64,000 nt of DNA from an uncultured Victivallaceae bacterium (GTDB lineage Bacteria > Verrucomicrobiota > Lentisphaeria > Victivallales > Victivallaceae), in contig CALXXL010000011.1 of NCBI GenBank assembly GCA_944392655.1, positions 3,924 through 67,923 of the forward strand, written 5' to 3'. The notes under the pieces are model-generated. The model had not been told where the DNA came from and did no database searches. It was given only the letters and a program-made list of their open reading frames with translations. A program made the translations under genes and the position numbers. This document shows, in pieces, positions 1-25,753 of this stretch (position 1 is the first letter of the stretch; the number at the start of each line of letters is the position of its first letter).

Positions 1-54
1 TGGCCTACAACAATTACATTTACAGGAAATCAGAATTCTAAAACCAATAATTTT

Positions 55-642
55 ATGTTATTTATAATATGTTTGATAACATTAGCAGGAGGATATTTAT
101 GGTTTCTATGCTGGCGCAATATTACACGGCAGTTGAATAAAAAAATGTATATACTGGGGATGACATGCGTTGGAATTTTACTTGCAATCCCAATTTACCT
201 AACTCCAATGTCATGCTTTTTATCAACCAAAATACCATTAGATTATTTCTCTTCAAAAACAAAAATGTTTCATGATATGTATAACACGGAACAATTGGAT
301 AAAATTATAGCAACAACTTCAAAGTCTGGAATTGTCAATAAAGAATTATTTATTGGCAAAAAAGATTTCTTTGAAATAGAATTCGCAAGGTATAATATTG
401 ATCATTTTGACTATATATATTATTTCCCGACAGAAACTCCTAACCTAATAGCAGATAAAAAAGCAAATTGGATTAACATATATAACAATGTATGGCTAAA
501 AGAGTACAAAAATAAGCAAGATCTACTACTCAATTATCTGTTCATGATTTTATACATACTTGTTGCTGTTATATCAGCATCAATATATATATATGTTATT
601 CTAGGCAAGCAATTGTATTGCAATATTATTAAATCCTCTTAA
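55..642 (+). CDS. hypothetical membrane protein, immunity-like small gene
   Basis: 195-aa ATG ORF. Hydrophobic helices LFIICLITLAGGYLWFLCW, ILGMTCVGILLAIPIYL and LFMILYILVAVISASIYIYVIL. Hairpin terminator follows directly. No family recognised. Confidence 0.5.
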   Translation: MLFIICLITLAGGYLWFLCWRNITRQLNKKMYILGMTCVGILLAIPIYLTPMSCFLSTKIPLDYFSSKTKMFHDMYNTEQLDKIIATTSKSGIVNKELFIGKKDFFEIEFARYNIDHFDYIYYFPTETPNLIADKKANWINIYNNVWLKEYKNKQDLLLNYLFMILYILVAVISASIYIYVILGKQLYCNIIKSS

Positions 643-663
643 CAAATATAAATGTTGTATTTT

Positions 664-690
664 ACCGCCCACTGTCGGGCGGTTTTTTAT
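664..690 (+). terminator. Rho-independent terminator
   Basis: Stem CCGCCC(665-670)/GGGCGG(677-682), 6-nt loop, T6 run at 683-688. Confidence 0.7.
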
Positions 691-697
691 TCAATTA

Positions 698-850
698 TCA
701 GTTTAGCAGTTGCTTAATCCACCCGCCATCATAAAAACAATCTTTCGATTTATTCTTTCAAGCACTTGACGTTGGACGATAGTTATGATATACTTTAGTA
801 TGTAAGTGTAGCCGGAAACGAGTGGAGATGCGGACGTGATTCTGTGGGAC
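698..850 (+). repeat. junction module copy A (AGCA dyad + promoter + Rhs-derived leader)
   Basis: Aligns by eye at roughly 85-90% with 4078-4227. Its 3' ~100 nt also aligns with 2850-2933. Confidence 0.8.
766..794 (+). promoter_or_regulatory. sigma-70 promoter, extended -10
   Basis: TTGACG(766-771), 17-nt spacer ending in TGA, TATACT(789-794). Confidence 0.65.
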
Positions 851-1834
851 AACAGTTATGTATACGCCACCGACCCGAATAAAAACGTGCGGGTTAAGCG
901 GTTCCCGGATGAATGGATGGGCAGCGGCTGGATTGAAGAGTTTTTCGACTACAAACCGTTCGGCGAACTGAAAAACTATGTCCAGTCTCCGCCGCGCTTT
1001 ATGTTCAGCAGTGAGGAATACATGCCGGAAACCGGTATGTATCACTATCTCTACCGCGCATACAGCCCGTCTCTCGCCCGATTCATCACCCGCGACCCGA
1101 TTGAAGAAGCCGGCGGCGTAAACCTCTACTGCTTCGTAAACAATAACCCGATAAGCAGGTGGGACATATGGGGGTTAGGAGATGGCAGAGAAAATAATGA
1201 AAACACATATAAACTAATCCAACTCACCCCTGAGTTCTGTTGCGATGAGTCTAAGGGCTATAAAGCAGATAACTGCGTATATATATATTTCTATTTGGCT
1301 GAAAGCAAGTGGCCGCATTGGTCTTGGGCAGAAAATTCTGACAACAACTACATTTCACATGCAGCACTAGGAGTGAATAATGACCTCCCAATCGGATTTA
1401 ATCCTAAGCTGACAATCGTTCCCTTTGAGTGGAATTTTAGATGGGGGTTGGGAAGCAGTATTATAAGAGAAAACCGCAAAGACATTGTTGCAAAAATAAA
1501 ATGTTGCTGCTTTAAAAATGAAGAAATTACTGCAATAAAAAATTATATCGAAAGCTATTTAGGTGCAGAAACCTATAAAGGAAAGGAATGGCTGATAAAC
1601 ACTAATAATTGTGCTACTTTTGTTTATGATGCACTTGCAAATAAAGGAGAAAATCCTATTAAAGTTACATGGGATAGTGATTTTTTATCTTGGGTGAATA
1701 GCTCTTGGGGAAATGTAGCAATGCGTCCAGAAGAATTACGGAGGGGGGTAATGCAATCCCGTAATTGCAAATTGTACGAAAAGGCAGACTCAAAGGATTG
1801 GTCAGGTTCTTTAGCGTTATATTCAGGAGAATAA
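836..1834 (+). CDS. orphan Rhs C-terminal tip: end of RHS repeat-associated core plus polymorphic C-terminal toxin domain (possibly permuted papain-fold LRAT/NlpC-P60-like)
   Basis: GTG start immediately after an in-frame TAG. FSSEEYMPETGMYHYLYRAYSPSLARFITRDPIEEAGGVNLYCFVNNNPISRWDIWGL matches the Rhs core-end motif (YRYY-P-GRF-DPIG-GG-NLY-Y-N-P-DP-GL). The downstream ~215 aa are unrelated to the core and contain SHAALG followed later by NTNNCATFVYDAL. Confidence 0.8.
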   Translation: MILWDNSYVYATDPNKNVRVKRFPDEWMGSGWIEEFFDYKPFGELKNYVQSPPRFMFSSEEYMPETGMYHYLYRAYSPSLARFITRDPIEEAGGVNLYCFVNNNPISRWDIWGLGDGRENNENTYKLIQLTPEFCCDESKGYKADNCVYIYFYLAESKWPHWSWAENSDNNYISHAALGVNNDLPIGFNPKLTIVPFEWNFRWGLGSSIIRENRKDIVAKIKCCCFKNEEITAIKNYIESYLGAETYKGKEWLINTNNCATFVYDALANKGENPIKVTWDSDFLSWVNSSWGNVAMRPEELRRGVMQSRNCKLYEKADSKDWSGSLALYSGE

Positions 1835-1838
1835 TATT

Positions 1839-2579
1839 ATGAGTTTCAAATCAATTCGCTTCGGGGTACTTGGTCTCGCAGTGCTTGTGCTGTTCGGCAT
1901 GGGCTGTAGTACGTCAAAGGATGAGTATGTTGAACATATACATGTATTTGAAAGCAATTGGGCACCTATACAATTACAATATATGCCTGTTGGCAACAAT
2001 ACTATACTAACCCTGGTTGACCATCAAAGCGAATTCCCTCCGATTGTTTGTGGAGTTAATATTGGCCCAATTGTTACCTACGTTAGCTCGTTATACGGCA
2101 TTAGTATCGCCCCATTTACAGCCCTATATCAACATAACGTAGGAGTAGCTATTTCTTTGCTTTGGTCCGGTAGTAGTAAAAGCGCACTTAATGCTGGAGT
2201 GATATTAGCGCCACTGCAATTATCTTGTAATATGTTGAATGCGGGAATAATCGGAGGATTTTTCAGTCTATATCAAGTCAATTACGGTGTTTCATTGGGA
2301 TTATTCAATGGCAATTTAACAGGGAAAGGAGCAAATTACGGTCTGCAAACCGGACTATTCAATGTCTCCCACATTAACAAAGGACTATCTATTGGCGTTG
2401 TAAATTATGCAGATTCTAGAGTGAAAGGTATTACCGGTTATCAGATTGGACTGATCAATATATGCGACGGATTAGCAATGCCTTTCTTTATGTTTTCCGG
2501 AGGAGGCGAAGAAAAGCCAAATATCGACTGGAGTAGTGAAATAACAGAAGAAGGCGATGAAATACTAAGACTAAATTAA
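1839..2579 (+). CDS. repeat-rich lipoprotein, candidate cognate immunity protein
   Basis: AGGAGA RBS, start 4 nt after the toxin stop. Lipobox LFGMGC. Degenerate G-x-x-x-G-L-x-N repeats (GVSLGLFNG, GLQTGLFNV, GLSIGVVNY, GYQIGLINI). Confidence 0.6.
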   Translation: MSFKSIRFGVLGLAVLVLFGMGCSTSKDEYVEHIHVFESNWAPIQLQYMPVGNNTILTLVDHQSEFPPIVCGVNIGPIVTYVSSLYGISIAPFTALYQHNVGVAISLLWSGSSKSALNAGVILAPLQLSCNMLNAGIIGGFFSLYQVNYGVSLGLFNGNLTGKGANYGLQTGLFNVSHINKGLSIGVVNYADSRVKGITGYQIGLINICDGLAMPFFMFSGGGEEKPNIDWSSEITEEGDEILRLN

Positions 2580-2595
2580 ATGACTGACAGTGGTA

Positions 2596-2645
2596 AAAGG
2601 TGTTACCAGGTATCAGATTGATTGGATTGATTAATATCTGCAACG
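2596..2645 (+). pseudogene. remnant of the 3' end of a second copy of the lipoprotein gene
   Basis: aaaggtgttaccaggtatcagattgattggattgattaatatctgcaacg is ~80% identical by eye to 2424-2469 inside the 1839-2579 gene. It has no ORF context. Confidence 0.5.
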
Positions 2646-2737
2646 AAGAAAACGCAAGATATCACTGAAACAATGGACTAATCAAGAAACAAAGCCAAAT
2701 GATGTAATCTGTTTATCTCATCACCCCAAAAACACCA

Positions 2738-2770
2738 AGACCGCCCGCTCCATCGGGCGGTCTCTTTTCT
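2738..2770 (+). terminator. Rho-independent terminator (member of a repeated hairpin family)
   Basis: Perfect 10-bp stem AGACCGCCCG/CGGGCGGTCT, 6-nt loop, CTTTTCT tail. Near-identical hairpins occur at 3947 and 6413. Confidence 0.7.
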
Positions 2771-2779
2771 GTTCGATTA

Positions 2780-2933
2780 CAGGTTTAGCATTTACTAAAA
2801 CGCAAAAAACCAAGAAATCAAAATTTCCCAGTTTATCATCGACAGCCGCTTGAAGTTGAATGATATTTATGATATACTTTATTGTGTAAGAGTAGCCGGA
2901 AACGAGTGGAGATGCGGACGTGATTCTGTGGGA
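2780..2933 (+). repeat. junction module copy B
   Basis: TTTAGCATTTACTAAA dyad (2784-2799), a promoter, and the leader gtaagagtagccggaaacgagtggagatgcggacgtgattctgtggga, which is identical to copy A except for one base. Confidence 0.8.
2850..2878 (+). promoter_or_regulatory. sigma-70 promoter, extended -10
   Basis: TTGAAG(2850-2855), 17 nt, TATACT(2873-2878), preceded by TGA. Confidence 0.6.
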
Positions 2934-2963
2934 TAAAAATTCTGTTTGTGATGAAATAATTTC

Positions 2964-3719
2964 ATGGAGCAGCTGAATATGATGATAAACCGATTTAAAC
3001 TTTGGTGGCCGCAATATGTTGTTATAACAGCAGCAGTATTTTGCGTCGTTATCTATTTTGTAACCCTTATGAACCCAACCACATTTGCATCGTTAAGACA
3101 CAAATTATGGCACAATACACCACAATATTTTCAGATATTATGGGCTCGATACTGGCTTGCTGACGATGACATTCCCATGGATGATCTGCTTATAAGATTG
3201 GCTGCCATAACTGTTGCCCATGAGCCATGGCGGGAACCTTATAATGACCAAATTAATGACATTTTACTTGATAAGGTGGAATCAAATGATGTGCTATATC
3301 AAGAATTCGTTCTGGAAAATTATTTTAACGGATCTATTATTCCCAATAGAAGAGCTCTTAAGAAAATATATAATGACTTTCAAAAAGCTAAAGAGCATTA
3401 TAACAGCAATCATTATAAATATGATGTATATTGCCGTGATTGCTACTGGGTTGAACTATTCGGAATTCTCCTGATAGCAGAAAATTACTCTTCCCCTCGA
3501 ATAAAAAATGTGATTAATGATCTTCATACCTATTCGGATGCGTTTGATGGTATAACTTACTCAGACGATCACACCACCTCTTTTGTAAGGCTAAACAACC
3601 TTGTTTATGATAGTACAATGGTATACCATCTATCTCGAATTTTTAGTCAAAAACAGAAAGAGAGACTAGAGAAAGTTCGGCTTGAGAAAGGGATGAAAAA
3701 TGGAATCAGAAGCTATTAA
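2964..3719 (+). CDS. hypothetical N-terminally TM-anchored protein
   Basis: 251-aa ORF, one TM helix (YVVITAAVFCVVIYFVTLM). No family recognised. Starts at 2979 or 2982 are also possible. Confidence 0.55.
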   Translation: MEQLNMMINRFKLWWPQYVVITAAVFCVVIYFVTLMNPTTFASLRHKLWHNTPQYFQILWARYWLADDDIPMDDLLIRLAAITVAHEPWREPYNDQINDILLDKVESNDVLYQEFVLENYFNGSIIPNRRALKKIYNDFQKAKEHYNSNHYKYDVYCRDCYWVELFGILLIAENYSSPRIKNVINDLHTYSDAFDGITYSDDHTTSFVRLNNLVYDSTMVYHLSRIFSQKQKERLEKVRLEKGMKNGIRSY

Positions 3720-3936
3720 AGAAATTAAAACAAAAGAAGACAACTATAAACGCAAACTCAGGTCATGCAGCCATTGCGGCAGAACACTTTCTGTTGCGGC
3801 GATTTTATGCCCCAACTGTTTTAGATTGTTCTATTTCAATATTGCCTTAGCTATGGTCATAACAGCATTTTGGCTGTCAATTATAGCTCTGGTCATATGG
3901 CAAGCCTTCCTGATTATATCCTGGAGCTTAAACTAA
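3700..3936 (+). CDS. small zinc-ribbon membrane protein
   Basis: 78 aa. CSHCG-x12-CPNC zinc-ribbon motif followed by hydrophobic FNIALAMVITAFWLSIIALVIWQAFLII. Overlaps the upstream gene by 20 nt. Confidence 0.5.
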   Translation: MESEAIKEIKTKEDNYKRKLRSCSHCGRTLSVAAILCPNCFRLFYFNIALAMVITAFWLSIIALVIWQAFLIISWSLN

Positions 3937-3946
3937 TATTATAGCA

Positions 3947-3978
3947 AGACCGCCCGTTCCATCGGACGGTCTTTTTTA
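3947..3978 (+). terminator. Rho-independent terminator (repeated hairpin family)
   Basis: AGACCGCCCG/CGGACGGTCT stem with one mismatch, loop TTCCAT, T6 tail. Confidence 0.7.
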
Positions 3979-4077
3979 TTCAATTGTAAGTTTAGCATTT
4001 ACTAAATTAAATAAACCAACAAAAATAAACTTATATTTTATAATTTACTAAATACATCACATAATCTTCCAAACCAG

Positions 4078-4227
4078 TCAAATTCAGCATTAGCTTAACC
4101 AGGCTGCACCCATAAAAAATAATCCTCCAATTTATCTCTTTCAAGGACTTGACGTTGTATGATATTTATGATATACTTTAGTATGTAAGAGTAGCCGGAA
4201 ACGAGTGGAGATGCGGACGAGATTCTG
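4078..4227 (+). repeat. junction module copy C
   Basis: Aligns with 698-850 along its whole length, including promoter and leader. The leader GTG is changed to GAG at 4219-4221. Confidence 0.8.
4149..4177 (+). promoter_or_regulatory. sigma-70 promoter, extended -10
   Basis: TTGACG(4149-4154), 17 nt, TATACT(4172-4177), preceded by TGA. Confidence 0.65.
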
Positions 4228-4374
4228 CAAAGTAATAATTATAAAATTCAGCACCGTGATGCACGTAAAAAAGGTATGACTCATTATGCTGTTCCGCATA
4301 ATCGCAATATAGATTATTCTTGCTATAAATACAGCATTAACGTCAATGATGATTTTGTGTCTTTACTCATATAA
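4195..4374 (+). pseudogene. possible toxin-gene scar: startless open frame continuing from the Rhs-derived leader
   Basis: The frame is open for 59 codons after the TAG at 4192-4194: PETSGDADEILQSNNYKIQHRDARKKGMTHYAVPHNRNIDYSCYKYSINVNDDFVSLLI*. The start-codon position is mutated (GAG). Confidence 0.3.
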
Positions 4375-4402
4375 TATTGAAATTTAATCACAAGAACACA
4401 CA

Positions 4403-4921
4403 ATGAAGCTCTTAATTAAATTTTTATTTTTCCTATGGGATAATATCAACCGGCTGGCGGCAGTTTTCGGCGTTTTACTGGTTTATTTGCATATTGCGCT
4501 ATTCATTTATGTCCAGTATACTGCCATATGGTATATCCAGAATCCTCAGCCAGGTACTCTTTATCTTGGTAATTGCTCCGGCACACAGGCGCTTTTTAGT
4601 CCTATCTTTCAAACGTGGGCCAATTTGATATTATTCTCCACCTGGAGCGATATTGCCAGACGGCTGATTGCTCATGACTTCAGTTGGCATAAAATAATAA
4701 ACCGTTTCCTCCTCTCATGGCAATGTCTGCTCCCCGTTCTATTCCTTATCGCGATATTTACATGGGTTGAATACTGTTACAGTGGAATAAAAATTGAAGT
4801 CGGACACGGCAACATATTCATTGAAACTATTTACCCGTTTATCTGGCATCTTATTATAGGCACGGGAATCATAACGCTTATCTATTTCAGGAATAAACGC
4901 AAACAGGTGCATGCTTTATAA
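4403..4921 (+). CDS. hypothetical multi-pass membrane protein (family A)
   Basis: 172 aa, 4-5 hydrophobic helices. Clear paralog of 16675-17181 (WDNINRLAAVFGVLLVY..ALFIYVQYTAIWYI versus WDNINRLAAIIGILLAY..ALFIYVQYTATWYI). Confidence 0.65.
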   Translation: MKLLIKFLFFLWDNINRLAAVFGVLLVYLHIALFIYVQYTAIWYIQNPQPGTLYLGNCSGTQALFSPIFQTWANLILFSTWSDIARRLIAHDFSWHKIINRFLLSWQCLLPVLFLIAIFTWVEYCYSGIKIEVGHGNIFIETIYPFIWHLIIGTGIITLIYFRNKRKQVHAL

Positions 4922-4932
4922 AATAAATTATA

Positions 4933-5484
4933 ATGAGAGGATATAATAAAATGCAAAAGTTACATGTATGGATTATTTTGTCCGCATTACTGACAGTCAC
5001 GACAGGATGTTGGGAACGGGAAAAAGTCGTCGTCCCGGAAGAGGTAAGAAGCGTAATCGCCATTCCTTCCGGCTATGAGGATTTTGATACTTATCCCGGA
5101 TTCAGAGATTGGGATCGGATCCCTTTGAAATACCCATATCAATTACACCGTATTGATGGAAACCCACTTTGTGACTTACAACGACTTTCGTCTCCACAAG
5201 GTGTTACGATATTCGGAAATAAAACTACTATTTTAAGCGATATAGAAATCATTGCTCCGGCAAAGGATTTTGCCGCGGTTGAAATGTCATTGGAAGATAT
5301 AAATCAGGGAGATAAAAAATTTGCAATTCTTTCGTACGAATCAGGCGAATGTGAATTTTTCTTAACTGAAGAAGAGATGTTTGAACACCTGAAAAGTCAA
5401 TATAACATTGCCAGAGAAGAACTTACTTTTTATACTTTTAACCAGTTGTTCCAATACTTTGAGGAGATAAGTTTTGAAAGGTAA
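4933..5484 (+). CDS. hypothetical lipoprotein (family B)
   Basis: Lipobox LTVTTGC. The likely true start is the ATG at 4951, after GAGAGGA. Paralog of 15728-16261 (VPEEVRSVIAIPSGYEDFDT..PLKYPYQL versus VPEAVKNAIALPSGDHDFDT..PLQYPYQL). Confidence 0.65.
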   Translation: MRGYNKMQKLHVWIILSALLTVTTGCWEREKVVVPEEVRSVIAIPSGYEDFDTYPGFRDWDRIPLKYPYQLHRIDGNPLCDLQRLSSPQGVTIFGNKTTILSDIEIIAPAKDFAAVEMSLEDINQGDKKFAILSYESGECEFFLTEEEMFEHLKSQYNIAREELTFYTFNQLFQYFEEISFER

Positions 5485-5577
5485 TGATGGACGGCAGAAT
5501 TGACAATTTACACTTTGCGCAGAATATTTTATTAGATTTCACAGATCCAATCAACATATAACTATGGGAAGGATATT

Positions 5578-6381
5578 ATGCTTAAATTTTTATCGTCGAT
5601 TTTTTTGTCGTGGGCGGTTATGACCACCACAATACCGGCGCAGGAACTTATTTTTGATGCTCCGGCTACAGAACAGGAAGCTATGATCGGAATTTCCAAC
5701 TTTGCTGCAATAAATGGTGCGCTATATCTTTCTCTCTATTATACTGTCCCTGAAAATTTTCGTCTCGCATTGATGGCAGATAGTATTATATCTTACACTT
5801 ATCCATTAGTGGAAACTTGCCATAACAACCCGGATTTCCAGGCGAGATATGAGGAAACATTTATAAAACTGGCCAAATTAATTAACTCCAATAAGCAGAA
5901 ACTGATAAAAGCCGGTATTCGATTTCATGGTCTCTCTATTGATTTGTCAATGCAAGCCTTGAAAAGCATGTTACCTGATGAGTATAAAGAGCTTATTCCG
6001 GGAGATGAACTGGATCTTTCAGAACCGGAGGAAGCATTGTCGCAGCCGGAAATGCTGGTTGCAAATTATCTTTGCTATGTGGGAGGGAATTCTTTCATTA
6101 AGTTAGTTGATTTACTGGAAACTATGCTTGCCAATAAAGTTGACCGAAATGAAATTAACCGGCAAGTCCTTGACATCGTAAAGGATGATTGGCGCATTGC
6201 CGCGCAATATCAATTGGTACTCGATCCAACGTTAAAAACATTAGCAGATCATGAAACCAATTCCATGTTCATCGAGTGTATGACACAGACTTGGAACTCT
6301 ATTCCGGAAGATGCAAAAAAAGATATTTTAAGCGACCCATTATTGAAAACGTGGATCGAAAAATGGCAGGAACGTTTATAA
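5578..6381 (+). CDS. hypothetical secreted protein (family C)
   Basis: GGAAGGA RBS, signal-like N-terminus. C-terminal motif DPLLKTWIEKWQERL is shared with 12885-13715 (NPVVKLWLEEWQERL). Confidence 0.65.
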   Translation: MLKFLSSIFLSWAVMTTTIPAQELIFDAPATEQEAMIGISNFAAINGALYLSLYYTVPENFRLALMADSIISYTYPLVETCHNNPDFQARYEETFIKLAKLINSNKQKLIKAGIRFHGLSIDLSMQALKSMLPDEYKELIPGDELDLSEPEEALSQPEMLVANYLCYVGGNSFIKLVDLLETMLANKVDRNEINRQVLDIVKDDWRIAAQYQLVLDPTLKTLADHETNSMFIECMTQTWNSIPEDAKKDILSDPLLKTWIEKWQERL

Positions 6382-6412
6382 TCAAAATGTAAACAAAATT
6401 AAATTTATATAT

Positions 6413-6454
6413 GCAACAAGACCGCTCAATATTGGGCGGTCTTGTTGCATTTTA
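6413..6454 (+). terminator. Rho-independent terminator (repeated hairpin family)
   Basis: 13-bp stem GCAACAAGACCGC(6413-6425)/GCGGTCTTGTTGC(6436-6448), followed by ATTTT. Confidence 0.7.
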
Positions 6455-6462
6455 CCATGATG

Positions 6463-6568
6463 AAATTCAGCATTTATTAAATAAAAAGGTCTCCCATGAT
6501 AATCTTGCTATTTTCCTCAGATAACCACTTTACGCCGGAGAATATTTATGATATACTCTATTGTGTCG
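6463..6568 (+). repeat. junction module copy D (partial, leader diverged)
   Basis: Has the ATTCAGCATTTATTAA dyad region and the promoter core atatttatgatatactctattgtgt shared with copy B. Similarity is lost after ~6568. Confidence 0.6.
6529..6557 (+). promoter_or_regulatory. sigma-70 promoter, extended -10
   Basis: TTTACG(6529-6534), 17 nt, TATACT(6552-6557), preceded by TGA. Confidence 0.55.
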
Positions 6569-6675
6569 AGCATAAAACAATGTTGATACTTTCTTTATGT
6601 AACAGTATTTGACTGGCAAAATTATTAATCTAAAATAAAAATTTTTATAAAATCAAGATCAGTGATGGAGCAAAA

Positions 6676-7119
6676 ATGACTTCCGCCAAACAGCGCAAAA
6701 TAACGTTATGTATCTACATTGTTGCCGTTCTTACAGGAATAATAGTTTTATTGGCATTCTATGTCTTTCAGAAAGGACCGTTTCTGTATTATAAGTTTGA
6801 AGAGAATCTTTCTTACAATGATATAAGATTTGAAAAACTGACTGATGACGCCAGAGACAGCTGTTTCTATATCCCGGTTGAAAATAAAAATGACTGGATC
6901 AAGTACCTTAAAACGCCTCCTCCTGAATGGCTGACCCCAGATCGCTGTTGCGTAATTGCCGTTGGAGCACCGCTGAAGAGCAGATTTGATGTTCTATGCC
7001 CGGCACCAAACGGCAAAATGATTGAAATGTACTACTTCTATACCGTACTGGGCCACAAAGATGGCAATATATATGTATACAGCTTCAAAAATAAAAATTT
7101 CATGTGGGGGCCATGGTAA
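6676..7119 (+). CDS. hypothetical N-terminally TM-anchored protein
   Basis: 147 aa, TM helix LCIYIVAVLTGIIVLLAFYVF. No family recognised. Confidence 0.5.
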   Translation: MTSAKQRKITLCIYIVAVLTGIIVLLAFYVFQKGPFLYYKFEENLSYNDIRFEKLTDDARDSCFYIPVENKNDWIKYLKTPPPEWLTPDRCCVIAVGAPLKSRFDVLCPAPNGKMIEMYYFYTVLGHKDGNIYVYSFKNKNFMWGPW

Positions 7120-7302
7120 ACCGCCATTCAATGCGGATAATACCCATATTTTCTTAATTGAAAAATCCATATAGCTCAACTTCAGATGGTCTTTCTATTT
7201 ACTTACAACTTCATCACTATTATACAACCTCATTTTTGAATAAATGGGAATGCAGAATAAAGTAATTTATCATAGTATGAAACTGGTGTTAAGGAGCAGA
7301 TC

Positions 7303-7410: not shown

Positions 7411-7439
7411 TGACATAATTGAAACTGGGATAACAAAAA

Positions 7440-18378: not shown

Positions 18379-18388
18379 AGAAAAAACT

Positions 18389-19348
18389 ATGAAAAAATTT
18401 CTTATTTCAGTTGCACTATGCGCAACCAGTCTGGTCTGGGGAATTGATGTACAAAATATCGATGGCAAACTGGTATTTGAACAGGATAATAAACCAATTT
18501 CCCCCAATGTTGTATATACGGAGCCAAATTTATATTTTCTTAATTCGTTTGAAGAAAAACCCGTGCCGGAAGCGCCGACTTTCTGTAGATTATATCCCAA
18601 TCGGGTTGACACCGTATTCATGTATGAGCCTGATAGTAAAGATATTCCAAGCCTGATAGCACTTATAGGCGGATGCCGCTATCAAAGTGTCCTGGCGGAT
18701 GCACACAGATATTTTCGTAAAGAAAATAAAGGGTTCTCTTTCGATAACATATATGAATTAAATTCGAATGGATTTTTCCTGCTTTACAAATGCATAACCA
18801 AAGATGGGCGGGTAATAGAAGAAAAAGGGCTTGCTCAATCCAATAAAGAGCCGCTACCAATGCTCACGCCACAGAAAATTTCATTGCAGAAAGCAGAAGA
18901 ATATGATAAGCTATTATTTGACCACAATAAAGCGGCTTTGCGGAATTTGAAGAATCCAACCACTCTATTAAAGGACAAAGAGAGCAATGTGTTTATTGAT
19001 TCATATAAAGTCTATAATGACGTCATAGTATGGGATGTATGTTGGCGAAACCAGAAGGCTTTCTGGATCTTTGATTTCTCTGATCCGAAAACAAAAATAA
19101 AAGTTGAAGCATACGGCGAAGTTTATAATTTATTTTCACAGGTCGTATATAACGGTGATTATGATTTCTCGCAGATATCCTTTTTTCAAATCGGCGATGA
19201 TAAATGCACCGTTCGTGTAAAACGTACAGGGCTAATGGAGTTATCGGCAGATATTGTTGTTCACAAGAAAGATCATGCACTGTTATATTCTTTAGAACTG
19301 GATCCGGAAAACGCCGATTTTAAATTAATAACTCCGGAACAAGATTGA
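18389..19348 (+). CDS. secreted protein, family S (variable N-half, conserved C-terminal domain)
   Basis: Signal peptide MKKFLISVALCATSLVWG. C-terminal FIDSYKV..IVWDV.W.NQK.FWIFDFSDP..KIKVEAY...YNLFSQ..YNG.YDFSQI is shared with 19457-20413. Confidence 0.7.
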   Translation: MKKFLISVALCATSLVWGIDVQNIDGKLVFEQDNKPISPNVVYTEPNLYFLNSFEEKPVPEAPTFCRLYPNRVDTVFMYEPDSKDIPSLIALIGGCRYQSVLADAHRYFRKENKGFSFDNIYELNSNGFFLLYKCITKDGRVIEEKGLAQSNKEPLPMLTPQKISLQKAEEYDKLLFDHNKAALRNLKNPTTLLKDKESNVFIDSYKVYNDVIVWDVCWRNQKAFWIFDFSDPKTKIKVEAYGEVYNLFSQVVYNGDYDFSQISFFQIGDDKCTVRVKRTGLMELSADIVVHKKDHALLYSLELDPENADFKLITPEQD

Positions 19349-19456
19349 AATGTTACAACTTTATAGCTGTCGCTGACGGTATATATCTTAACACTTATGG
19401 ACAATAAAATTATAACAACTTAATTACACATTCTGTAATTCATCACAGGAGAAGAG

Positions 19457-20413
19457 ATGAAAAAATTTCTTATTTCAGCTGCACTATGCGCAACCAGCCT
19501 GGTCTGGGGAATTGATGTACAAAATATCGATGGCAGACTTATTTTTACACAGGACAATAAGCCGATTTCCCCCAACGCGGCGTATTATGATAACAATATA
19601 TATTTCCTTAATACATTCGGCGAAAAAACCATAATGGGAACTACTATGGTTGGTGGATTATTCCCTCAGTTTGTTGATACCGGATGGATTTATGAGCCCG
19701 GCAAAGATCAGCCGGGAATATCAATGTTTATCGCGACGCGTCGGGATAGCATAATGACTAATTCAAACAGATATTTATATTCAGATTCTAAACAGATTTC
19801 ATCACTCTGGAACATATATAAATTAACCGGGGAAGGATTTTTCCTGAATTATTCCCATACCAAAGAAAATGAGCAAGTAATAGAAAAAGAAGGTTTTTTC
19901 CACTCTATCGAAGAATCTCCGCTGGTACTATCAGCGCAAAAGATTTCATCACAAGAAGTCAAAGATTATGATAATTTACTATTTGAGTCCAACAAGTCAG
20001 CATTGTTGAATTTAAAAGATCCGGTATCGGTATTGAAAAATGAAGATTTTGAACACTTTATCGACTCTTATAAAGTAAAAGATGATATTATAGTGTGGGA
20101 AGTGCGTTGGGCGAATCAAAAGGTTTTCTGGATTTTTGATTTCTCCGACCCGAATATCAAAATAAAAGTTGAAGCATACGACGAATCCTATAATTTATTT
20201 TCACAAATGGCCTATAATGGCGGTTATGATTTCTCGCAAATAACATTTTACCGGGTGGGAAACGATAAATGCACCATTCGCGTAAAACGTAAAGAGCTGT
20301 TGGATTTATCGGCAGATATTGTTGTTCATAAAGACGATCATGCGCTGTTATATTCATTGCAGGCAGATCCGGAAAACGCCGATTTTAAATTGGTAACTCC
20401 GAAACAAGATTGA
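19457..20413 (+). CDS. secreted protein, family S
   Basis: The first ~90 nt are nearly identical to 18389-18480. The C-terminal ~350 nt are ~85% identical by eye to 18990-19348. Confidence 0.7.
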   Translation: MKKFLISAALCATSLVWGIDVQNIDGRLIFTQDNKPISPNAAYYDNNIYFLNTFGEKTIMGTTMVGGLFPQFVDTGWIYEPGKDQPGISMFIATRRDSIMTNSNRYLYSDSKQISSLWNIYKLTGEGFFLNYSHTKENEQVIEKEGFFHSIEESPLVLSAQKISSQEVKDYDNLLFESNKSALLNLKDPVSVLKNEDFEHFIDSYKVKDDIIVWEVRWANQKVFWIFDFSDPNIKIKVEAYDESYNLFSQMAYNGGYDFSQITFYRVGNDKCTIRVKRKELLDLSADIVVHKDDHALLYSLQADPENADFKLVTPKQD

Positions 20414-20417
20414 AAAT

Positions 20418-20783
20418 ATGTACAGAACAATAGGTCGTTCATTCCTTTTTGGGGCTTTTAACTGTCTGCTTGCGGCGGATCTATTGTGGTGGATTTTTAT
20501 CTGCACAAATTGGAGCCATACATTTTATCACTACGGATATGCGAATCCCGGAATGGTGAAATGGTTCGGACAGGTAGGACTTATTTGCCTGACCGGGAAT
20601 TGTATTTATCAAACTATTGCAAAAACTAAAATGAATACCAGAATAGTGTCGTCATTTGCAATCGCAGTAGTTGCCGCGCTCAGCATGTTCTTTTTTGTTA
20701 TAAACCAGGACGGATTCAGTGAATTTATCGATTTTTTCCTTCAATTGAGCATGGAAGGAGTGTATGATGGCATTGTTAATTAA
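20418..20783 (+). CDS. hypothetical small membrane protein
   Basis: 121 aa, 3-4 hydrophobic helices. Confidence 0.5.
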   Translation: MYRTIGRSFLFGAFNCLLAADLLWWIFICTNWSHTFYHYGYANPGMVKWFGQVGLICLTGNCIYQTIAKTKMNTRIVSSFAIAVVAALSMFFFVINQDGFSEFIDFFLQLSMEGVYDGIVN

Positions 20784-21108
20784 ATCAGGTTATTCTGCGG
20801 CAAATTTGTTTATGACCGCAGCAGGGTTCTGGTGGTTGAGCATAATAACGCATCTTCAACGCAATCTTAACGAGTACTATATTATTGCATTTTCGCTCCC
20901 CTGTTGGGAAAACGTATATCTTATTTTCAATGTAATAATGTATGTCTACCTGGGAATCGGCATTGTAACGACAATTTTGTTTTGGATAGTAAAACCTGAA
21001 TGGCGTTCAAAATTATTGCTGTACTCATGGATGTTTACCATCTCTGTTGTTTTAGTTATGTTACAATGGTTTGCGGCAAATTCAGGGAATTTATTCTGGG
21101 GATTGTGA
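20764..21108 (+). CDS. hypothetical small membrane protein
   Basis: 114 aa, 3-4 hydrophobic helices. GGAAGGAG RBS; the second ATG (20767) has the better spacing. Confidence 0.5.
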   Translation: MMALLIKSGYSAANLFMTAAGFWWLSIITHLQRNLNEYYIIAFSLPCWENVYLIFNVIMYVYLGIGIVTTILFWIVKPEWRSKLLLYSWMFTISVVLVMLQWFAANSGNLFWGL

Positions 21109-21115
21109 GTACACG

Positions 21116-22021
21116 ATGCAAGTAATAAAACCTTTCCTGTCTGCGATCATACCGCTACTGTTGACAGTAGCGGTAAATGCGGCAACTCCTCAAATAAATA
21201 TCGGGAGAGCGCTTATCATTGCGACAATACCGCCGGCGACAATGCCGGAACTGATTTTCCGGAGCAGCAATAAGCCCGGAGTTATGATTTTTAACCGTTC
21301 AACTTCTGATTTAAGACCTTTTTTCACTGTTCATGTTTATGAAAAAACTTTTTATTTACGACATTACTGGAGAGAACAAAATGCTTTTTCAATAACAGAA
21401 ATCTGGGGATATTTAGATGGCAATGTTGAACTTATCCGCCGCGCCTGTGCGGATATAACCACGCCTATACCTGCCAGAAAGCTATCCTGGCAATGCTATC
21501 CATTATGTAACGGGAATAACTTCTCACAAATCGCCCAACCTGATAGCGGAAACTCTCCGGAAAAGTTTGAGTATAAAGAGTTGAATGCGGAAGCAATACA
21601 GAAATACTCCGCGCTTTTGTTTGAATCATCACCATTAATCAAGCATCTGCCGGAGGATTTCACCGCATTCAACCGGAACTTCAAATTCTATCGGGTAAAC
21701 GATGGTCTCTTTGTCATCAAAAATGGCGATGGTTCCATCGTATACTGCTTTAACTTCACCTCTTCCAGTAATGTGTGCGAAATAGAAATCTATGTGCATG
21801 ACAAACTGATTATGCAAATAGCGTATAATGGCGGTTATAACATTTCCACCCTTACCTTCTGCAAATCGGAAGAAAATGACGTTGTGATACGAACCAGCCG
21901 TCACAACAATGATGAGCTATTAATGGAATGTATGGTTAGCACGGTTCCGGATAAGGCAGTATTGTATTCTAAACAACTTGAACTATATAATATAAATAAT
22001 TCATCAGAGGAGAAGAGATGA
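21116..22021 (+). CDS. secreted protein, family S
   Basis: Start moved to the ATG at 21116 (MQVIKPFLSAIIPLLLTVAVNAA signal); the track start at 21071 is TTG inside the upstream gene. The C-terminal half is nearly identical to 22873-23796. Confidence 0.7.
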   Translation: MQVIKPFLSAIIPLLLTVAVNAATPQINIGRALIIATIPPATMPELIFRSSNKPGVMIFNRSTSDLRPFFTVHVYEKTFYLRHYWREQNAFSITEIWGYLDGNVELIRRACADITTPIPARKLSWQCYPLCNGNNFSQIAQPDSGNSPEKFEYKELNAEAIQKYSALLFESSPLIKHLPEDFTAFNRNFKFYRVNDGLFVIKNGDGSIVYCFNFTSSSNVCEIEIYVHDKLIMQIAYNGGYNISTLTFCKSEENDVVIRTSRHNNDELLMECMVSTVPDKAVLYSKQLELYNINNSSEEKR

Positions 22022-22860
22022 AAAAATTTCTATTCACAATAGTTATGCTTGGATGTACCGCATTCAGCTATGGTACGGAAAAAAGCGTCACTTCAGAGGA
22101 AGAACAACTAAAACTGAATCAGCAATTGTTTCAGACATTCCGGCAATCCGGAGATATGGTTGAAATGAAACGCCTGATTGATATGGGAGCAGACGTAAAC
22201 TATACCGAACACTACCTGAATATGATAACGCTGGCAGTTTGGAGTAACGATATTTGCATGACGGAATTTCTGATTGCCGAAGGCGCAGAACTGGTCAATG
22301 GAGAAGGAGAAAATAATCTATTGGATTACGCTCCGAGTAACGCTATGGCGGAAATCCTTTACAATCACGGAGTAAATGACCTTAATTCAGCATTAATCAG
22401 CCAGGCAAAAAACATTCTGCTTGGGAAACATAACATTCATAAAAATTCAATTGAATTTCTGATTGAACATGGTGTCTCCCCCGATACAACCTGGCGAAAT
22501 GCGTGGTCTGTTATGCCACTTGCGCTATTAAGTACAACCAACGATAACGCGTATGAAACCATAAAACTGCTTTTGCAATATGGTGCAGATGTCTCGCCTG
22601 ACGCCAATATGATGACCCCACTGCATTATGCAGCATATAACAACAATCCGCAAACAATAAATTTACTCATTGATCACGGACTCGACGTTAATGCTCAGGA
22701 TAAAAACGGTAACACTCCATTACATTGTGCCAAAAGTTTTTTAAAGGAAAATCCACGAGTCATTAAGACTTTGCTGGGACGCGGTGCAGACCCCAATATC
22801 CGAAACAAAGAGGGCAAACTGTATTCAGAAATTACCCGGGAAAACTTAACTTTTCTGTAG
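22018..22860 (+). CDS. secreted ankyrin-repeat protein
   Basis: Signal peptide MKKFLFTIVMLGCTAFSYG. Canonical ANK repeats (TPLHYAAYNNNPQTINLLIDHGLDVNAQDKNGNTPLHCA, LLGRGADPNIRNKEGK). Confidence 0.8.
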   Translation: MKKFLFTIVMLGCTAFSYGTEKSVTSEEEQLKLNQQLFQTFRQSGDMVEMKRLIDMGADVNYTEHYLNMITLAVWSNDICMTEFLIAEGAELVNGEGENNLLDYAPSNAMAEILYNHGVNDLNSALISQAKNILLGKHNIHKNSIEFLIEHGVSPDTTWRNAWSVMPLALLSTTNDNAYETIKLLLQYGADVSPDANMMTPLHYAAYNNNPQTINLLIDHGLDVNAQDKNGNTPLHCAKSFLKENPRVIKTLLGRGADPNIRNKEGKLYSEITRENLTFL

Positions 22861-22872
22861 GAGATTAACGGT

Positions 22873-23796
22873 ATGAAAAAAATCATTTTTTCACTAGCTG
22901 TATTTTTCGGATATGCCGCGCTTTACGGTGCAGAATCAACTAATGTTGCTCCGGAGATAAAAATCTATGATTCCATGGTCACCATGGAAATTGGTCACAC
23001 CGGCAAACCGGAGCTTGTATTCACTCCGGGCATAATTCCCGGAATACAGTTATACAACCGCGATGCGGATGACAATCAGAGATTTTTTCTTGCATGGACA
23101 TCCATAGATTCATTTTTTATAACTCAACGCTTGCGCCACGCTCCGAAATATGATGATGTATTTACAGAAGGCGACTTCAACGGGAAACATCTGCTGGAAG
23201 CGACTTTCGTTGCCGGAGAACAGGCTGAAAATTATGATATGGCAATCTATCAGCGTTACAGATTACATGAAGCTGATACCTTTGCACTGCTTATGAAATA
23301 TCCCGGCAGATATAATGATCGGGAATACTTCCTGCCGCAAAATTCTCCGGAAAAGTTTGAGTATAAAGAATTGAATGCGGAAGCAATACAGGAATACTCC
23401 GCGCTTTTGTTTGAATCATCACCTTTAACAAAACAGCTGCCGGAAGATTTCACCACATTCAACCGGAATTTCAAATTCTACCGGATAAACGACGGTTTCT
23501 TTGTCATCAAAAATAGCGACGGCTCCATCGCATACTGCTTTAACTTCGCCTCTTCCAGTAATGTGTGCGAAATCGAAATCTATGTGCACGATAAACTGGT
23601 TATGCAGATAGCGTATAATGGCGGTTATAACATTTCCACCCTTACCTTCTGCAAATCGGGAGAAAATGACGTTGTGATACGCACCAGCCGTCACGGCAAT
23701 GATGAACTGATGACGGAATATGTAATTATCTCTGCACCGGACAAGGCAATCCTTTATACGCCGGAGATTGAACTTGATGTTGAAATATTGAGATAG
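22873..23796 (+). CDS. secreted protein, family S
   Basis: AGGAG RBS, signal peptide. 23341-23705 is >90% identical by eye to 21551-21915. Confidence 0.7.
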   Translation: MKKIIFSLAVFFGYAALYGAESTNVAPEIKIYDSMVTMEIGHTGKPELVFTPGIIPGIQLYNRDADDNQRFFLAWTSIDSFFITQRLRHAPKYDDVFTEGDFNGKHLLEATFVAGEQAENYDMAIYQRYRLHEADTFALLMKYPGRYNDREYFLPQNSPEKFEYKELNAEAIQEYSALLFESSPLTKQLPEDFTTFNRNFKFYRINDGFFVIKNSDGSIAYCFNFASSSNVCEIEIYVHDKLVMQIAYNGGYNISTLTFCKSGENDVVIRTSRHGNDELMTEYVIISAPDKAILYTPEIELDVEILR

Positions 23797-23877
23797 GCTT
23801 ATTGTATGAGAGGCGAATATCTGGAAGGAGATAATGAAGAATAACCATAACAATAATTTTTTCTCAAGGAGTTCTTT

Positions 23878-25116
23878 ATGAAAAGAACAATGGTGTGTTT
23901 AACAATTACTCTTTTTCTGACTGGATGTATTTTTAAGTCACCAACCAGAGCACTCGCTCAGGTTGAAAGGATTGAATTATATGGTGCATACAACAGCGGA
24001 TTGACATTTAATCAATTGGTTGAATATATTACTGAACTCAAGCCGGAGGAGATAGCCGCAATACAATCTATTGCAACCCCAGAGCATTTCTCCGTAAATG
24101 ACAAGGTAAGATATGCCTCGCCATTTGCGTATCTGAAGGTTTATCTGAAAAATGGTATGTCGCAATATTACGGTATAGATTATAATGCCGTTGAGGATAA
24201 ATTCATGCTATATTACTCGTCCGATATCCGCTCTATGCCTATTTCAGCATATACAATTTCAATCATTGATCCGGAGTTAAATAAACAAATAAAAAGAATT
24301 CTCACTCGCTACCCAGGATCCAACGGCTCAGGATATCAAAATATAATCAGCGCAATTTCCCGGAACAACTCTGATGAAAATAACAACAATAACAGAGCCG
24401 GTATAATCCCACTTTTATGGGCTGAAAATGAATTGCGTCCGGGTTTTGTTTTCCGCTCATCCTGCCCCGACAATACAAATGAACAATTTATTTTTATCTG
24501 GAAAGACGGCAATCAATATAATTTAATTTATAATCGGAACAGTAATTTCAAATGCATCTTCTCTTTTACTGATGATCTAAGCAGTTACACCATTGATTCC
24601 ACCAATGATTTTTCAAAAATACAGCACTTTTACCGGAACGATGTGATTTCATCCGCCATAAAAGAGCAATACTTCACTCCGGATCAAAATTTCCGGGAAT
24701 ACCGCATTGAACCGGAAAGGCTATCGCCGTTACCTCTCGCCCCTCAGGAGATGGGAAAATATATTTCGCCATTTTTTACTAATGAGCCAACCAGCTTGAA
24801 GCATATCGCTGATTCCGGTGATTTGGAACTTATGCAATACGGTGAGAATCAAATCGTAGTCAATGCAGATAATGGTATGATATACCGGATAGAGTTTATC
24901 CCGTCAAAAAACACCTGTCTTATAAGCGTAAAATATAACGATACAACTTTTATGCAGATATCAATCAAGGATAATCAGATTATTCAGCTTATCGGCAATG
25001 AACAGGAGGGTTTCACCCGTACTGAATTTGATAACTCCAGCTGTACTGTCAGTTATATAAACAACCATAACGGCGAGCGGATTTTACGCGAAACACATAT
25101 TAATAAACGCAGTTAA
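23878..25116 (+). CDS. lipoprotein, distant family S member
   Basis: AAGGAG RBS, lipobox LFLTGC. The C-terminal region (YRIEFIPSKNTCLISVKYNDTTFMQISIKDNQI) follows the family S C-domain pattern only loosely. Confidence 0.6.
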   Translation: MKRTMVCLTITLFLTGCIFKSPTRALAQVERIELYGAYNSGLTFNQLVEYITELKPEEIAAIQSIATPEHFSVNDKVRYASPFAYLKVYLKNGMSQYYGIDYNAVEDKFMLYYSSDIRSMPISAYTISIIDPELNKQIKRILTRYPGSNGSGYQNIISAISRNNSDENNNNNRAGIIPLLWAENELRPGFVFRSSCPDNTNEQFIFIWKDGNQYNLIYNRNSNFKCIFSFTDDLSSYTIDSTNDFSKIQHFYRNDVISSAIKEQYFTPDQNFREYRIEPERLSPLPLAPQEMGKYISPFFTNEPTSLKHIADSGDLELMQYGENQIVVNADNGMIYRIEFIPSKNTCLISVKYNDTTFMQISIKDNQIIQLIGNEQEGFTRTEFDNSSCTVSYINNHNGERILRETHINKRS

Positions 25117-25276
25117 TTTTTTAATAATAAAATAAAATCTCTTACCCCATGAAGGAGTTTAAAACAACTGTTTTTTTAAGGAATAGCAGTATAAAAATGT
25201 GGTTAACGTCTTTTTCGGTAATAAAAAATAATTTATCAAATTTTATAGTCGGAATTGTACTGTTTTCGTGCATTGA

Positions 25277-25753
25277 ATGGCTTGGCTTCTGATGGCGCTC
25301 ACTACAAATTGCTGTCAACTTGTAATATTCAGAGATACAGGCATATTACTGGTATTTTTCTTTAACATGGGATTAGGCAATTTACCTCTGTTGATAATCT
25401 GGCTTCTGGGACTGGAGTATTGGAACGGCATCGCCTATATTACCTTTAAAAAAATATTACCATACTGTAAATTATGCTCAAGCCGATATAAAGTAAAATA
25501 TGTGCCGCATCAGCCATTTCATAAATATTTGACCATCGGAGTAATATTTGCCCTCATAAGCTCATGCATCTCTCCATTTTTCAACTTGATCTTTCTTATG
25601 GTTTATCCGCCTTTCGATGAACCGGATAAACAAATCCCATCATTTTTAGGATTATATTTTACATGTGCGGTAATCTCCGGCCTGCTTTATGGAGTAATAT
25701 GGTTTATGCTGAATAAATACAAAGTAGTCAGGCAGCAACCATATAATCGATGA
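25277..25753 (+). CDS. hypothetical 4-TM membrane protein, possibly 5'-truncated by a 5-nt duplication
   Basis: 158 aa, no SD sequence. The upstream ORF 25149-25292 would fuse in frame if one copy of the tandem GGCTT (25279-25288) were removed. Confidence 0.45.
   Translation: MAWLLMALTTNCCQLVIFRDTGILLVFFFNMGLGNLPLLIIWLLGLEYWNGIAYITFKKILPYCKLCSSRYKVKYVPHQPFHKYLTIGVIFALISSCISPFFNLIFLMVYPPFDEPDKQIPSFLGLYFTCAVISGLLYGVIWFMLNKYKVVRQQPYNR

Follow-up and report, generated by a model that had tools for sequence, protein, structure and literature searches.

The stretch analysed here (the window) comprises 64,000 nucleotides (nt) of contig CALXXL010000011.1 (assembly GCA_944392655.1) from an uncultured bacterium of the Victivallaceae, and its first 25 kb are filled by a tight array of small genes that includes the orphan toxin tip of an Rhs protein. 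Window 1–25140 very probably represents the distal two-thirds of a single chromosomal Rhs polymorphic-toxin locus of this lineage of the Lentisphaerota. The locus starts about 9.1 kb upstream of the window with an rhs gene encoding 2044 amino acids (aa).

The array holds 33 AT-rich open reading frames (ORFs) in one orientation, with a mean GC content of 0.38 (0.47 in the flank) and a coding density of 87%; many intergenic gaps are shorter than 15 nt, or the genes overlap. An original prediction, made from the sequence alone, had placed every gene between 55 and 25753 on the + strand and called the region more AT-rich than its surroundings; both statements agree with the ORF list and with a GC content of 0.35–0.41 over window 1–26000 against 0.43–0.50 over the remaining window. 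It had likewise described mostly transmembrane (TM)-anchored, lipoprotein and secreted products, and indeed most array proteins have a hydrophobic segment at the N terminus, multiple TM segments or a Cys behind a hydrophobic stretch. Comparison of these proteins with one another also recovers the scattered paralog families it had noted (genes are named by their first coordinate): 4403 and 16675, 4933 and 15728, 5578 and 12885, 7440 and 8207, 17311 and 17845, and 18389, 19457, 21116 and 22873, with 23878 as a distant addition. The idea of a large set of orphan immunity genes remains probable, with about 32 candidate ORFs in place of the roughly 40 envisaged. The right boundary has to be moved inward from 25753, because the gene at 25277–25753 stays beside the flanking type II secretion system (T2SS)-like operon even in relatives with other arrays, so that the array ends near 25140–25225. 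This 158-aa gene with three TM segments is AT-rich like the array and adjoins the T2SS operon in L053, L054 (partial) and L055 (L numbers designate contigs carrying related loci); it is therefore part of the backbone, or else the gene fixed longest ago, and not one of the variable cassettes.

A search for exact copies of the 332-aa product of ORF 836–1834 led to L001, an ENA contig of 121 kb, which matches window 1–11834 at 100% identity and carries the full-length rhs gene (L001 31–6165), which ends 3.0 kb before window position 1. The original prediction had set the array apart from any full-length rhs, and had proposed an upstream extension in search of such a gene or of a recombinase; the extension supplied the former, and a recombinase was not seen. 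Because L001 shows rhs upstream, the window array is the distal part of a main-rhs/orphan locus and not a free-standing island. The main Rhs protein contains RHS_repeat and TEN_YD-shell domains and a DUF6973 tip, and its RHS-associated core, reading ...NNPVSRWDRWGL at the end, closes in a PxxxxDxxGL cleavage motif. Its N-terminal ~650 aa (L001 31–2130) are without a recognisable domain or signal peptide, and the alignment with the L052 ortholog begins only at residue ~655. On the 3' side of the main gene follow a 161-aa TM-anchored gene (L001 6177–6662), a 576-aa orphan and a 365-aa multi-TM gene, the last of which runs into the window and is probably, by its position, the cognate immunity gene of the orphan576 tip. 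Both orphan576 and orphan332 match the NCBIfam model TIGR03696 (Rhs_assc_core), and small genes begin 4–5 nt after each tip. The locus thus holds fragments of the core 3' end fused to different tips, each with a small gene behind it, plus two bare stubs. Its composition follows the pattern typical of rhs loci, with a GC content of 0.48–0.52 in the rhs core, 0.32–0.37 in the tips, 0.30–0.38 in the immunity genes and 0.47 in the flank.

The orphan332 ORF opens with the conserved Rhs core end (...YRAYSPSLARFITRDPIEEAGGVNLYCFVNNNPISRWDIWGL; ...NNNPISRWDIWGL), and window 810–1173 is 97% identical at the nucleotide level to the end of the main rhs core (L001 5240–5603) and 92% identical to the core end of orphan576. 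A homolog search with orphan332 returned about 30 short Rhs tips in which the core stub is 71–96% identical and the toxins differ (PF15607, PF10908, PF03782, PF05903 and PF22322 among their domains). The 218-aa tip itself is rare, with 15 representatives among 1.84 billion proteins, some of them C-terminal on RHS/YD proteins. Across the family His61 is invariant and Cys145, which lies in an N-x-PNCATF motif, is nearly so. Sequence and profile searches of Pfam and the PDB gave no credible relative of the tip; for one family member there is a weak match (E 0.0028) to the permuted papain-like amidase Peptidase_C92, and we propose, with low confidence, that the tip may be a permuted papain-fold hydrolase. 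The gene that follows, 1839–2579, is 99% identical in L057 and is a candidate for the cognate immunity gene, as the original prediction had suggested in pairing a toxin tip with an immunity lipoprotein. Because the immunity candidates are lipoprotein-like, the toxin may act in the periplasm.

Between the proximal modules lie recurrent junctions (J1–J5; see the table). The exact 12-mer TTATGATATACT occurs five times, at 783, 2867, 4166, 6546 and 8123, always intergenic and on the + strand, and no further exact copy exists in the 64-kb window. It sits in a module of about 80 nt with the form CTTGACG–17 nt–TATACT and an upstream TG (nhmmer E 3e-21 to 2e-11). In a comparison of 15 copies of this module, both hexamers and their spacing are nearly invariant and the rest has diverged; a copy stands upstream of every short orphan in L034, L053 and L056. 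The four predicted terminator hairpins at J1–J4 are related, GC-rich and followed by T-runs. Just after them comes a box, AGTTTAGCATTTACTAAA, in five copies against 0.13 expected by chance (the J2 and J4 copies at 2782–2799 and 6464–6481), which also recurs behind the main immunity gene, in the junction at L001 ~6700–6850, and may serve to bind a regulator or as a 3' arm for recombination. J1–J3 run on into the rhs core codons PETSGDADVILWD. At J2 and J3 only these stubs of 43 and 35 nt survive, fused to unrelated sequence, just as the original prediction had read the first toxin-ORF codons before unrelated genes.

Two of its statements about the junctions hold in part. Of seven blocks thought to share one extended −10 promoter, five share the module, while the sites at 12540 and 16580 have good consensus yet are not copies of it. 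These two sites, each a near-perfect sigma-70 consensus, lie in non-coding gaps of 373 nt (12512–12884) and 413 nt (16262–16674); an ORF overlapping the first gap, 12611–12967, is probably spurious. A terminator–promoter junction had also been assigned to each cassette; terminators and promoter-like sequences are present, but junction repeats are confined to the proximal 8.2 kb of the window.

Table. Features of the array and its junctions in window coordinates
Feature	Position	Strand	Remarks
3' part of 365-aa multi-TM gene	1–642 (ORF from 55)	+	full gene L001 8710–9807, 5 nt after orphan576 stop
J1 terminator-like hairpin and T-run	664–683	+	
J1 box AGTTTAGCATTTACTAAA	700–717	+	
J1 promoter-like module	725–804	+	−35 at 766–771, TG, −10 at 789–794
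rhs core stub of orphan332	810–1177	+	homologous to main-Rhs residues ~1737–1859; GC 0.52
Orphan rhs-CT ORF (orphan332), 332 aa	836–1834	+	toxin domain 1178–1831
246-aa lipoprotein-like, LA_2272-type repeats (NCBIfam NF047436)	1839–2579	+	4 nt after orphan332 stop
J2 terminator hairpin	2736–2768	+	
J2 promoter-like module	2807–2888	+	
J2 rhs core stub, toxin deleted	2894–2936 (43 nt)	+	100% to L001 5240–5279 and 7650–7692
Module 2, 251 aa with TM at the N terminus; candidate immunity gene from its place behind a stub	2964–3719	+	no toxin-adjacent homolog found
Module 2, 78 aa, zinc ribbon and 2 TM	3700–3936	+	
J3 terminator hairpin	3945–3977	+	
J3 box, two copies	3989–4006, 4035–4052	+	
J3 promoter-like module, also strain-to-strain breakpoint	4106–4187	+	L034 17213 maps to window 4114
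J3 rhs core stub, toxin deleted	4193–4227 (35 nt)	+	
172-aa 3-TM, orphan immunity candidate	4403–4921	+	76% homolog directly after L052 orphan305 stop
183-aa lipoprotein-like, orphan immunity candidate	4933–5484	+	91% homolog in same L052 module
267-aa secreted, family F4, putative orphan immunity gene	5578–6381	+	cognate toxin absent here
J4 terminator hairpin	about 6415–6453	+	
J4 promoter-like module, no rhs stub	6475–6567	+	
147-aa TM-anchored	6676–7119	+	array context only
186-aa TM-anchored, paralog of 8207	7440–8000	+	array context only
J5 promoter-like module, most diverged copy	8063–8144	+	
200-aa TM-anchored	8207–8809	+	array context only; 64% homolog in L052, different order
114-aa acyl-carrier-protein-like, DUF1493 (PF07377, E 2.5e-5)	8800–9144	+	array context only
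129-aa TM-anchored	9257–9646	+	array context only
168-aa TM-anchored, orphan paralog of main-tip (DUF6973) immunity gene	9721–10227	+	55% to L001 6177–6662
143-aa 4-TM	10231–10662	+	array context only
330-aa multi-TM	10714–11706	+	weak: 28% over 108 aa to 365-aa immunity candidate, E 2.5e-4
270 aa, C-terminal TM segments	11699–12511	+	array context only
Consensus sigma-70-like site TTGACA-17-TATAAT, 12/12, no TG	12540–12568	+	identical in L035
276-aa secreted, second F4 member, orphan immunity candidate	12885–13715	+	
170-aa soluble	13728–14240	+	array context only
300-aa multi-TM	14305–15207	+	array context only; 48% partial homolog in L052 array
Lipoprotein-like, likely start 15236 (155 aa), orphan immunity candidate	15176–15703	+	
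177-aa lipoprotein-like	15728–16261	+	80% homolog is second gene of L053 orphan355 module; paralog of 4933
Sigma-70-like site TTGACT-17-TATAAT, 11/12, with TG	16580–16608	+	hexamers conserved in divergent L054
168-aa 3-TM, 63% paralog of 4403	16675–17181	+	
175-aa TM-anchored, tandem pair with 17845	17311–17838	+	array context only; 80% homolog in L052/L054
177-aa TM-anchored	17845–18378	+	array context only
F8 copy 1, 319-aa secreted	18389–19348	+	
F8 copy 2, 318 aa	19457–20413	+	
Small 2-TM	20418–20783	+	array context only
Small 2-TM	20764–21108	+	array context only
F8 copy 3, 301 aa from ATG	21116–22021	+	
280-aa ankyrin-repeat lipoprotein-like (Pfam Ank)	22018–22860	+	
F8 copy 4, 307 aa	22873–23796	+	
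412-aa lipoprotein-like, distant F8 relative, last array gene	23878–25116	+	

How far do the related loci bear out an Rhs origin of these genes? In L034, which has four orphans, the tip of the fourth (orphan282) is 100% identical to the main tip of the window strain, and the same 161-aa gene (99% identical) follows this DUF6973 tip in both. L035 has one long orphan, orphan494, whose tip is 100% identical to the main tip of L053; a homolog of 5578–6381 follows both, at 98% identity and a distance of 10 nt in L035 and at 87% identity in L053. The main tip of L052 is 68–72% identical to the orphan332 tip and is followed by a degraded homolog of 1839–2579. A tip that is orphan in one strain thus stands on the main gene in another in each of the three pairs, L034/window, L035/L053 and L052/window. 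Tip families and downstream gene families co-vary across these relatives. The main and orphan256 tips of L034 are 43% identical and precede homologous 267-aa and 262-aa genes; the L035 main and L053 orphan254 tips are related (30–32%) and precede other F4 members, and such members follow related tips in L003, L035, L053 and L058.

The same comparisons place further window genes beside toxins. The L053 array reads, in order, main tip and 5578 homolog, orphan254 and 12885 homolog, orphan355 and 15176/15728 homologs, 25277 homolog and T2SS operon; the 15176–15703 homolog (85%) overlaps the orphan355 toxin stop, and 43% homologs of 12885–13715 come directly after the orphan254 tip and after the main rhs tip of L058. 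The main rhs of L058 is split into ORFs of 1581 and 401 aa (L058 5259–11206), either by a frameshift or by an assembly error. In L052, an intact 305-aa orphan tip stands directly before the homologs of 4403, 4933 and 5578, and homology to the window resumes exactly at 4402. L056 carries a toxin end related to orphan332 (pairwise E 4e-5), 2 nt later a 38% homolog of 23878–25116, and then a hairpin, a promoter module and an rhs stub. Altogether, a homolog or paralog stands immediately behind a toxin tip for at least 11 genes of the window, which belong to at least 7 unrelated families (55–642, 1839, 4403, 4933, 5578, 9721, 12885, 15176, 15728, 16675 and 23878). If these are indeed immunity genes, as their positions suggest, the array presents what Zhang 2012 (PMC3482391) describe as a polyimmunity locus, namely at least four tandem, co-directional, closely spaced immunity genes of unrelated families.

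Differences between strains consist of tip swaps at the conserved core end and of one breakpoint inside a junction module, as is classical for homologous recombination at rhs loci (Koskiniemi 2014, PMC3967940). At L034 17213, window −2366 (junction J0) is joined to window 4114, the start of the J3 promoter module; from this mapping, the window strain carries additional modules amounting to 6.5 kb, with junction sequence as their bounds. The tail of the L035 locus is 99.5% identical at the nucleotide level to window 5570–15569, and yet its main Rhs is only ~95% identical to that of the window strain, so the locus is mosaic, suggesting internal recombination. At one chromosomal site the array measures ~5–6 kb in L053, where the T2SS flank proteins are 97.6–99% identical to those of the window, ~15 kb in L052/L054, a more distant metagenome-assembled genome (MAG; LigA 82% identical) in which many window families are reordered, and ~28 kb in the window strain. 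Architecture, switching between main and orphan tips, length polymorphism, the junction breakpoint and the co-variation of toxin and immunity families can therefore all be read directly from aligned loci. The turnover of cassettes at junctions that the original prediction had anticipated is seen to this extent, content varying among relatives and one breakpoint falling in a junction module, but the tail is invariant among close strains.

Given these observations, we regard it as highly improbable that the region is an integron-like or rAID-like island, as first proposed, in which a site-specific recombinase captures cassettes singly at junctions, independently of the resident rhs. Recombinase-associated acquired interbacterial defence clusters (rAID-1) of Bacteroidales reach up to 31 genes and more than 16 kb, and the skewed GC content, the co-oriented array of more than 30 genes, the promoter-bearing intergenic repeats and the strain variation seen here are all rAID-1 hallmarks (Ross et al. 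2019, bioRxiv 10.1101/471110). The likeness extends to the presumed role of a large orphan-immunity array in defence against other strains' toxins. However, the defining feature of rAID-1 is a conserved XerD-family recombinase that heads the array, and acquired interbacterial defence clusters lie on mobile elements (bioRxiv 10.1101/471110). Here a full-length rhs heads the array, the chromosomal site is fixed between housekeeping-type genes, and neither the window nor the related loci (L034, L035, L052–L055 and L058), including any that reach both flanks, yielded a tyrosine recombinase or an integrase by gene calls and Pfam. The repeats include rhs core sequence, and the swaps fall at the core end. 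As for integrons, which have IntI, an attI with Pc and an attC per cassette, no integrase is present, no attC-like structure is evident at the junctions, where the hairpins are ordinary GC stems with T-runs, and most tail genes have no repeat between them, the distal 17 kb being devoid of junction modules. The junction repeats are instead made up of hairpin terminator, box, promoter-like site and stretches of the rhs core.

The tail of about 25 further genes is best read, on present comparisons, as orphan immunity genes left by earlier modules, that is, as a heterogeneous polyimmunity array. Several observations weigh against the reading of the region as one Rhs locus with its immunity genes. 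The tail would derive from decayed modules by inference, and itself holds neither junction modules nor toxin remnants: an nhmmer profile of the 15 modules found none beyond 8144, and tblastn with ~25 known tips of the lineage found no toxin remnant beyond orphan332 in window 1–26000. From 6676 to 25116 the tail is gene-for-gene invariant in all ~20 contigs with exact proteins. About 19 of the ~32 candidates (2964, 3700, 6676, 7440, 8207, 8800, 9257, 10231, 10714, 11699, 13728, 14305, 17311, 17845, 20418, 20764, most F8 copies and 22018) have no homolog seen directly beside a toxin; their candidacy draws on the array around them, on a weak link to a paralog or on the class of a domain. No array gene matches a curated Imm family in Pfam. 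AlphaFold2 models were unusable, with a predicted local distance difference test score (pLDDT) of 36.6 for the orphan332 toxin domain and 48.1 for F8. Finally, PAAR and VgrG were not found in the loci, and the N-terminal 700 aa of the main Rhs gave no Pfam domain when scanned.

Scans of all array proteins against Pfam, NCBIfam and PADLOC returned only ankyrin, DUF1493, zinc ribbon, LA_2272 repeat and Rhs_assc_core matches, and the Pfam scans detected no SUKH, SuFu or Imm-numbered family. A literature search gave no support for DUF1493 as an immunity family, and we have not used it as evidence. Ankyrin repeats, in contrast, are a listed immunity class (Imm-ank; Zhang 2012, PMC3482391). Family F8, with five copies over ~6.7 kb, is restricted to the host lineage (11 clusters among 5.8e9 sequences), and its sole link to the 412-aa family is a profile alignment (hhalign probability 72%, E 3.5e-5).

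Such properties could also be expected if only the first ~6.4 kb, with three modules, were linked to Rhs and the distal block, especially 16675–25116, were a lineage-specific cluster of envelope or surface proteins. The invariance of that block among close strains, its want of junction modules and toxin remnants, the unannotated, lineage-only F8 family and the separation of the ankyrin–F8 block from the T2SS flank by unrelated genes in L055 all speak for this explanation, which we nevertheless consider improbable. The block is missing in L053 despite the near-identical flanks, and is shortened and reshuffled in L054; its GC content is as low as in the rest of the array. The 412-aa family, distant kin of F8, lies in L056 between a toxin that ends 2 nt before it and an orphan junction, gene 16675 is a 63% paralog of 4403, whose L052 homolog follows a toxin, and the ankyrin repeats belong to a known immunity class. 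In L055 (3674–7460), a radical-SAM gene and an SNF2-family helicase gene lie between the last array gene and the 25277 homolog. We considered the SNF2 gene as the mark of an inversion and rejected this; it is a 34% paralog of the left-flank SNF2 gene, hence an insertion, and the array end looks like an insertion hot spot.

This insert, together with the low GC content, is also what might recommend an anti-phage defence island or a mobile element (a remnant of a prophage or of an integrative and conjugative element) inserted beside rhs, to which we give almost no credence. PADLOC gives ankyrin-repeat matches only; its PDC-M72A match was rejected as a defence system, since it reflects merely such repeats. 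Rfam and tRNA scans of the locus were empty, no integrase was called, and the small products, membrane-bound or secreted, have no enzymatic domains.

In conjunction with what is known of Rhs systems, we propose the following model for the locus as one Rhs polymorphic-toxin locus. The main Rhs protein would deliver its C-terminal tip into competitors, only the tip of the main gene being deployed, and the adjacent immunity protein would neutralise each tip in the producer. Orphans would serve as spare tips, the short ones keeping ~370 nt and the long ones ~1 kb of the conserved, GC-richer core; because they retain this sequence, the main-gene tip could be swapped by homologous recombination. Modules may be gained, pushed distally and eroded, with toxins lost first and immunity genes kept because they would protect against the same toxins fired by relatives. 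The ~80-nt promoter-like module upstream of each short orphan and the hairpin after modules where a 3' end is seen (J1–J4 and L056) could make the transcription of immunity genes independent of the main rhs. Toxicity, neutralisation, promoter activity and the delivery route are parts of this model that we infer.

A bolder version, possible though rather doubtful, holds that the short orphan modules are a standardised exchange cassette that works without a recombinase, an integron analogue built on rhs homology, with a delivery route that does not use type VI secretion (T6SS). The promoter module and the same ~370-nt core stub, starting from residue ~1737, would form the 5' arm, the toxin and immunity genes the payload, and the hairpin with the AGTTTAGCATTTACTAAA box the 3' arm. 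The two arms would let toxin/immunity units move between strains or species by homologous recombination, and the built-in promoter would keep captured immunity genes expressed.

As a whole, the locus is a large, well-ordered example of a type of bacterial warfare locus that is already known; it is not a new integron-like system and shows no new mechanism. Enterobacterial Rhs loci (Salmonella Typhimurium, E. coli, Dickeya and Serratia; PMC3150448, PMC3967940, PMC7043789) have the same order of a full-length rhs followed by core-retaining orphan modules, the same AT-rich tips behind a GC-richer core, exchange between main and orphan tips, and orphan promoters. Recombination between main and orphan tips via core homology has been shown experimentally in Salmonella (Koskiniemi 2014, PMC3967940), and internal rhs promoters for orphan modules have been described there (Starsta 2020, PMC7043789). 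Unlike in those loci, the host here belongs to the Victivallaceae, no T6SS, VgrG or PAAR gene is nearby, ~32 genes lie downstream where Salmonella Typhimurium has a single orphan module, and the toxin and immunity families are mostly unannotated. The short orphans also share a fixed 5' boundary at core residue ~1737, preceded by a non-coding promoter module, whereas the Salmonella promoter lies inside the core ORF. The polyimmunity loci of Zhang 2012 (PMC3482391) consist of the same tandem, co-directional, tightly spaced genes of unrelated families and vary between strains; extended ones were reported only in Proteobacteria, Bacteroidetes, Firmicutes and Actinobacteria. A variable poly-immunity cluster linked to Rhs occurs at Stenotrophomonas vgrG6 (bioRxiv 10.64898/2026.07.13.738213). 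There too, the array is linked to an Rhs effector whose tip varies with it; in the window locus no T6SS context is seen. Distinctive here are the host phylum, the array's size, the lack of annotated families and the 5' boundary common to the short orphans, with a promoter module dedicated to it.

The surroundings are those of a stable chromosomal site. In relatives it comprises an SNF2 helicase gene, rhs, the array and a T2SS-like operon; the helicase gene lies left of rhs in L034, L035, L052 and L058, with an MFS gene beyond it in L058, and at the right end the array stops at the T2SS-like operon in L053, L054 and L055. This T2SS/type IV pilus-like operon (25809–36635, − strand) encodes a GspK-like protein, pseudopilins, GspG, GspF, GspE, a secretin and three small genes, and is the constant right neighbour in every relative examined. 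The right flank also holds LigA, a DapL-type aminotransferase, DapF, GOGAT, GS-III and AspRS. Region 38764–50978 is ordinary chromosomal context concerned with nitrogen assimilation (a GAF-domain sigma-54 activator, the DapL-type aminotransferase, DapF, large and small glutamate synthase subunits, and type III glutamine synthetase). LigA (36740–38767) is 99% identical to a Victivallaceae MAG protein and 62% to that of Victivallis sp., which places the host in the Planctomycetes–Verrucomicrobia–Chlamydiae (PVC) superphylum, as predicted. A core-stub scan of reference genome contigs returned nothing but distant Rhs genes and, from a close relative, a single contig of 2.2 kb, so the species is poorly represented among reference genomes; a metagenome scan for the junction pattern returned two 1.7-kb contigs only, one of them L056.

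What is the relevance of this locus? It extends Rhs-linked polyimmunity arrays of the extended type to the Lentisphaerota (Victivallaceae), a little-studied gut lineage, and supplies several unannotated toxin and immunity families, among them a seldom-found toxin domain in which a His and the Cys of an N-x-PNCATF motif are conserved. In addition, the window strain, L034, L035, L053 and L052/L054 form a natural series in which tip switching, module loss and growth of the array from ~5–6 to ~28 kb can be traced at one site.

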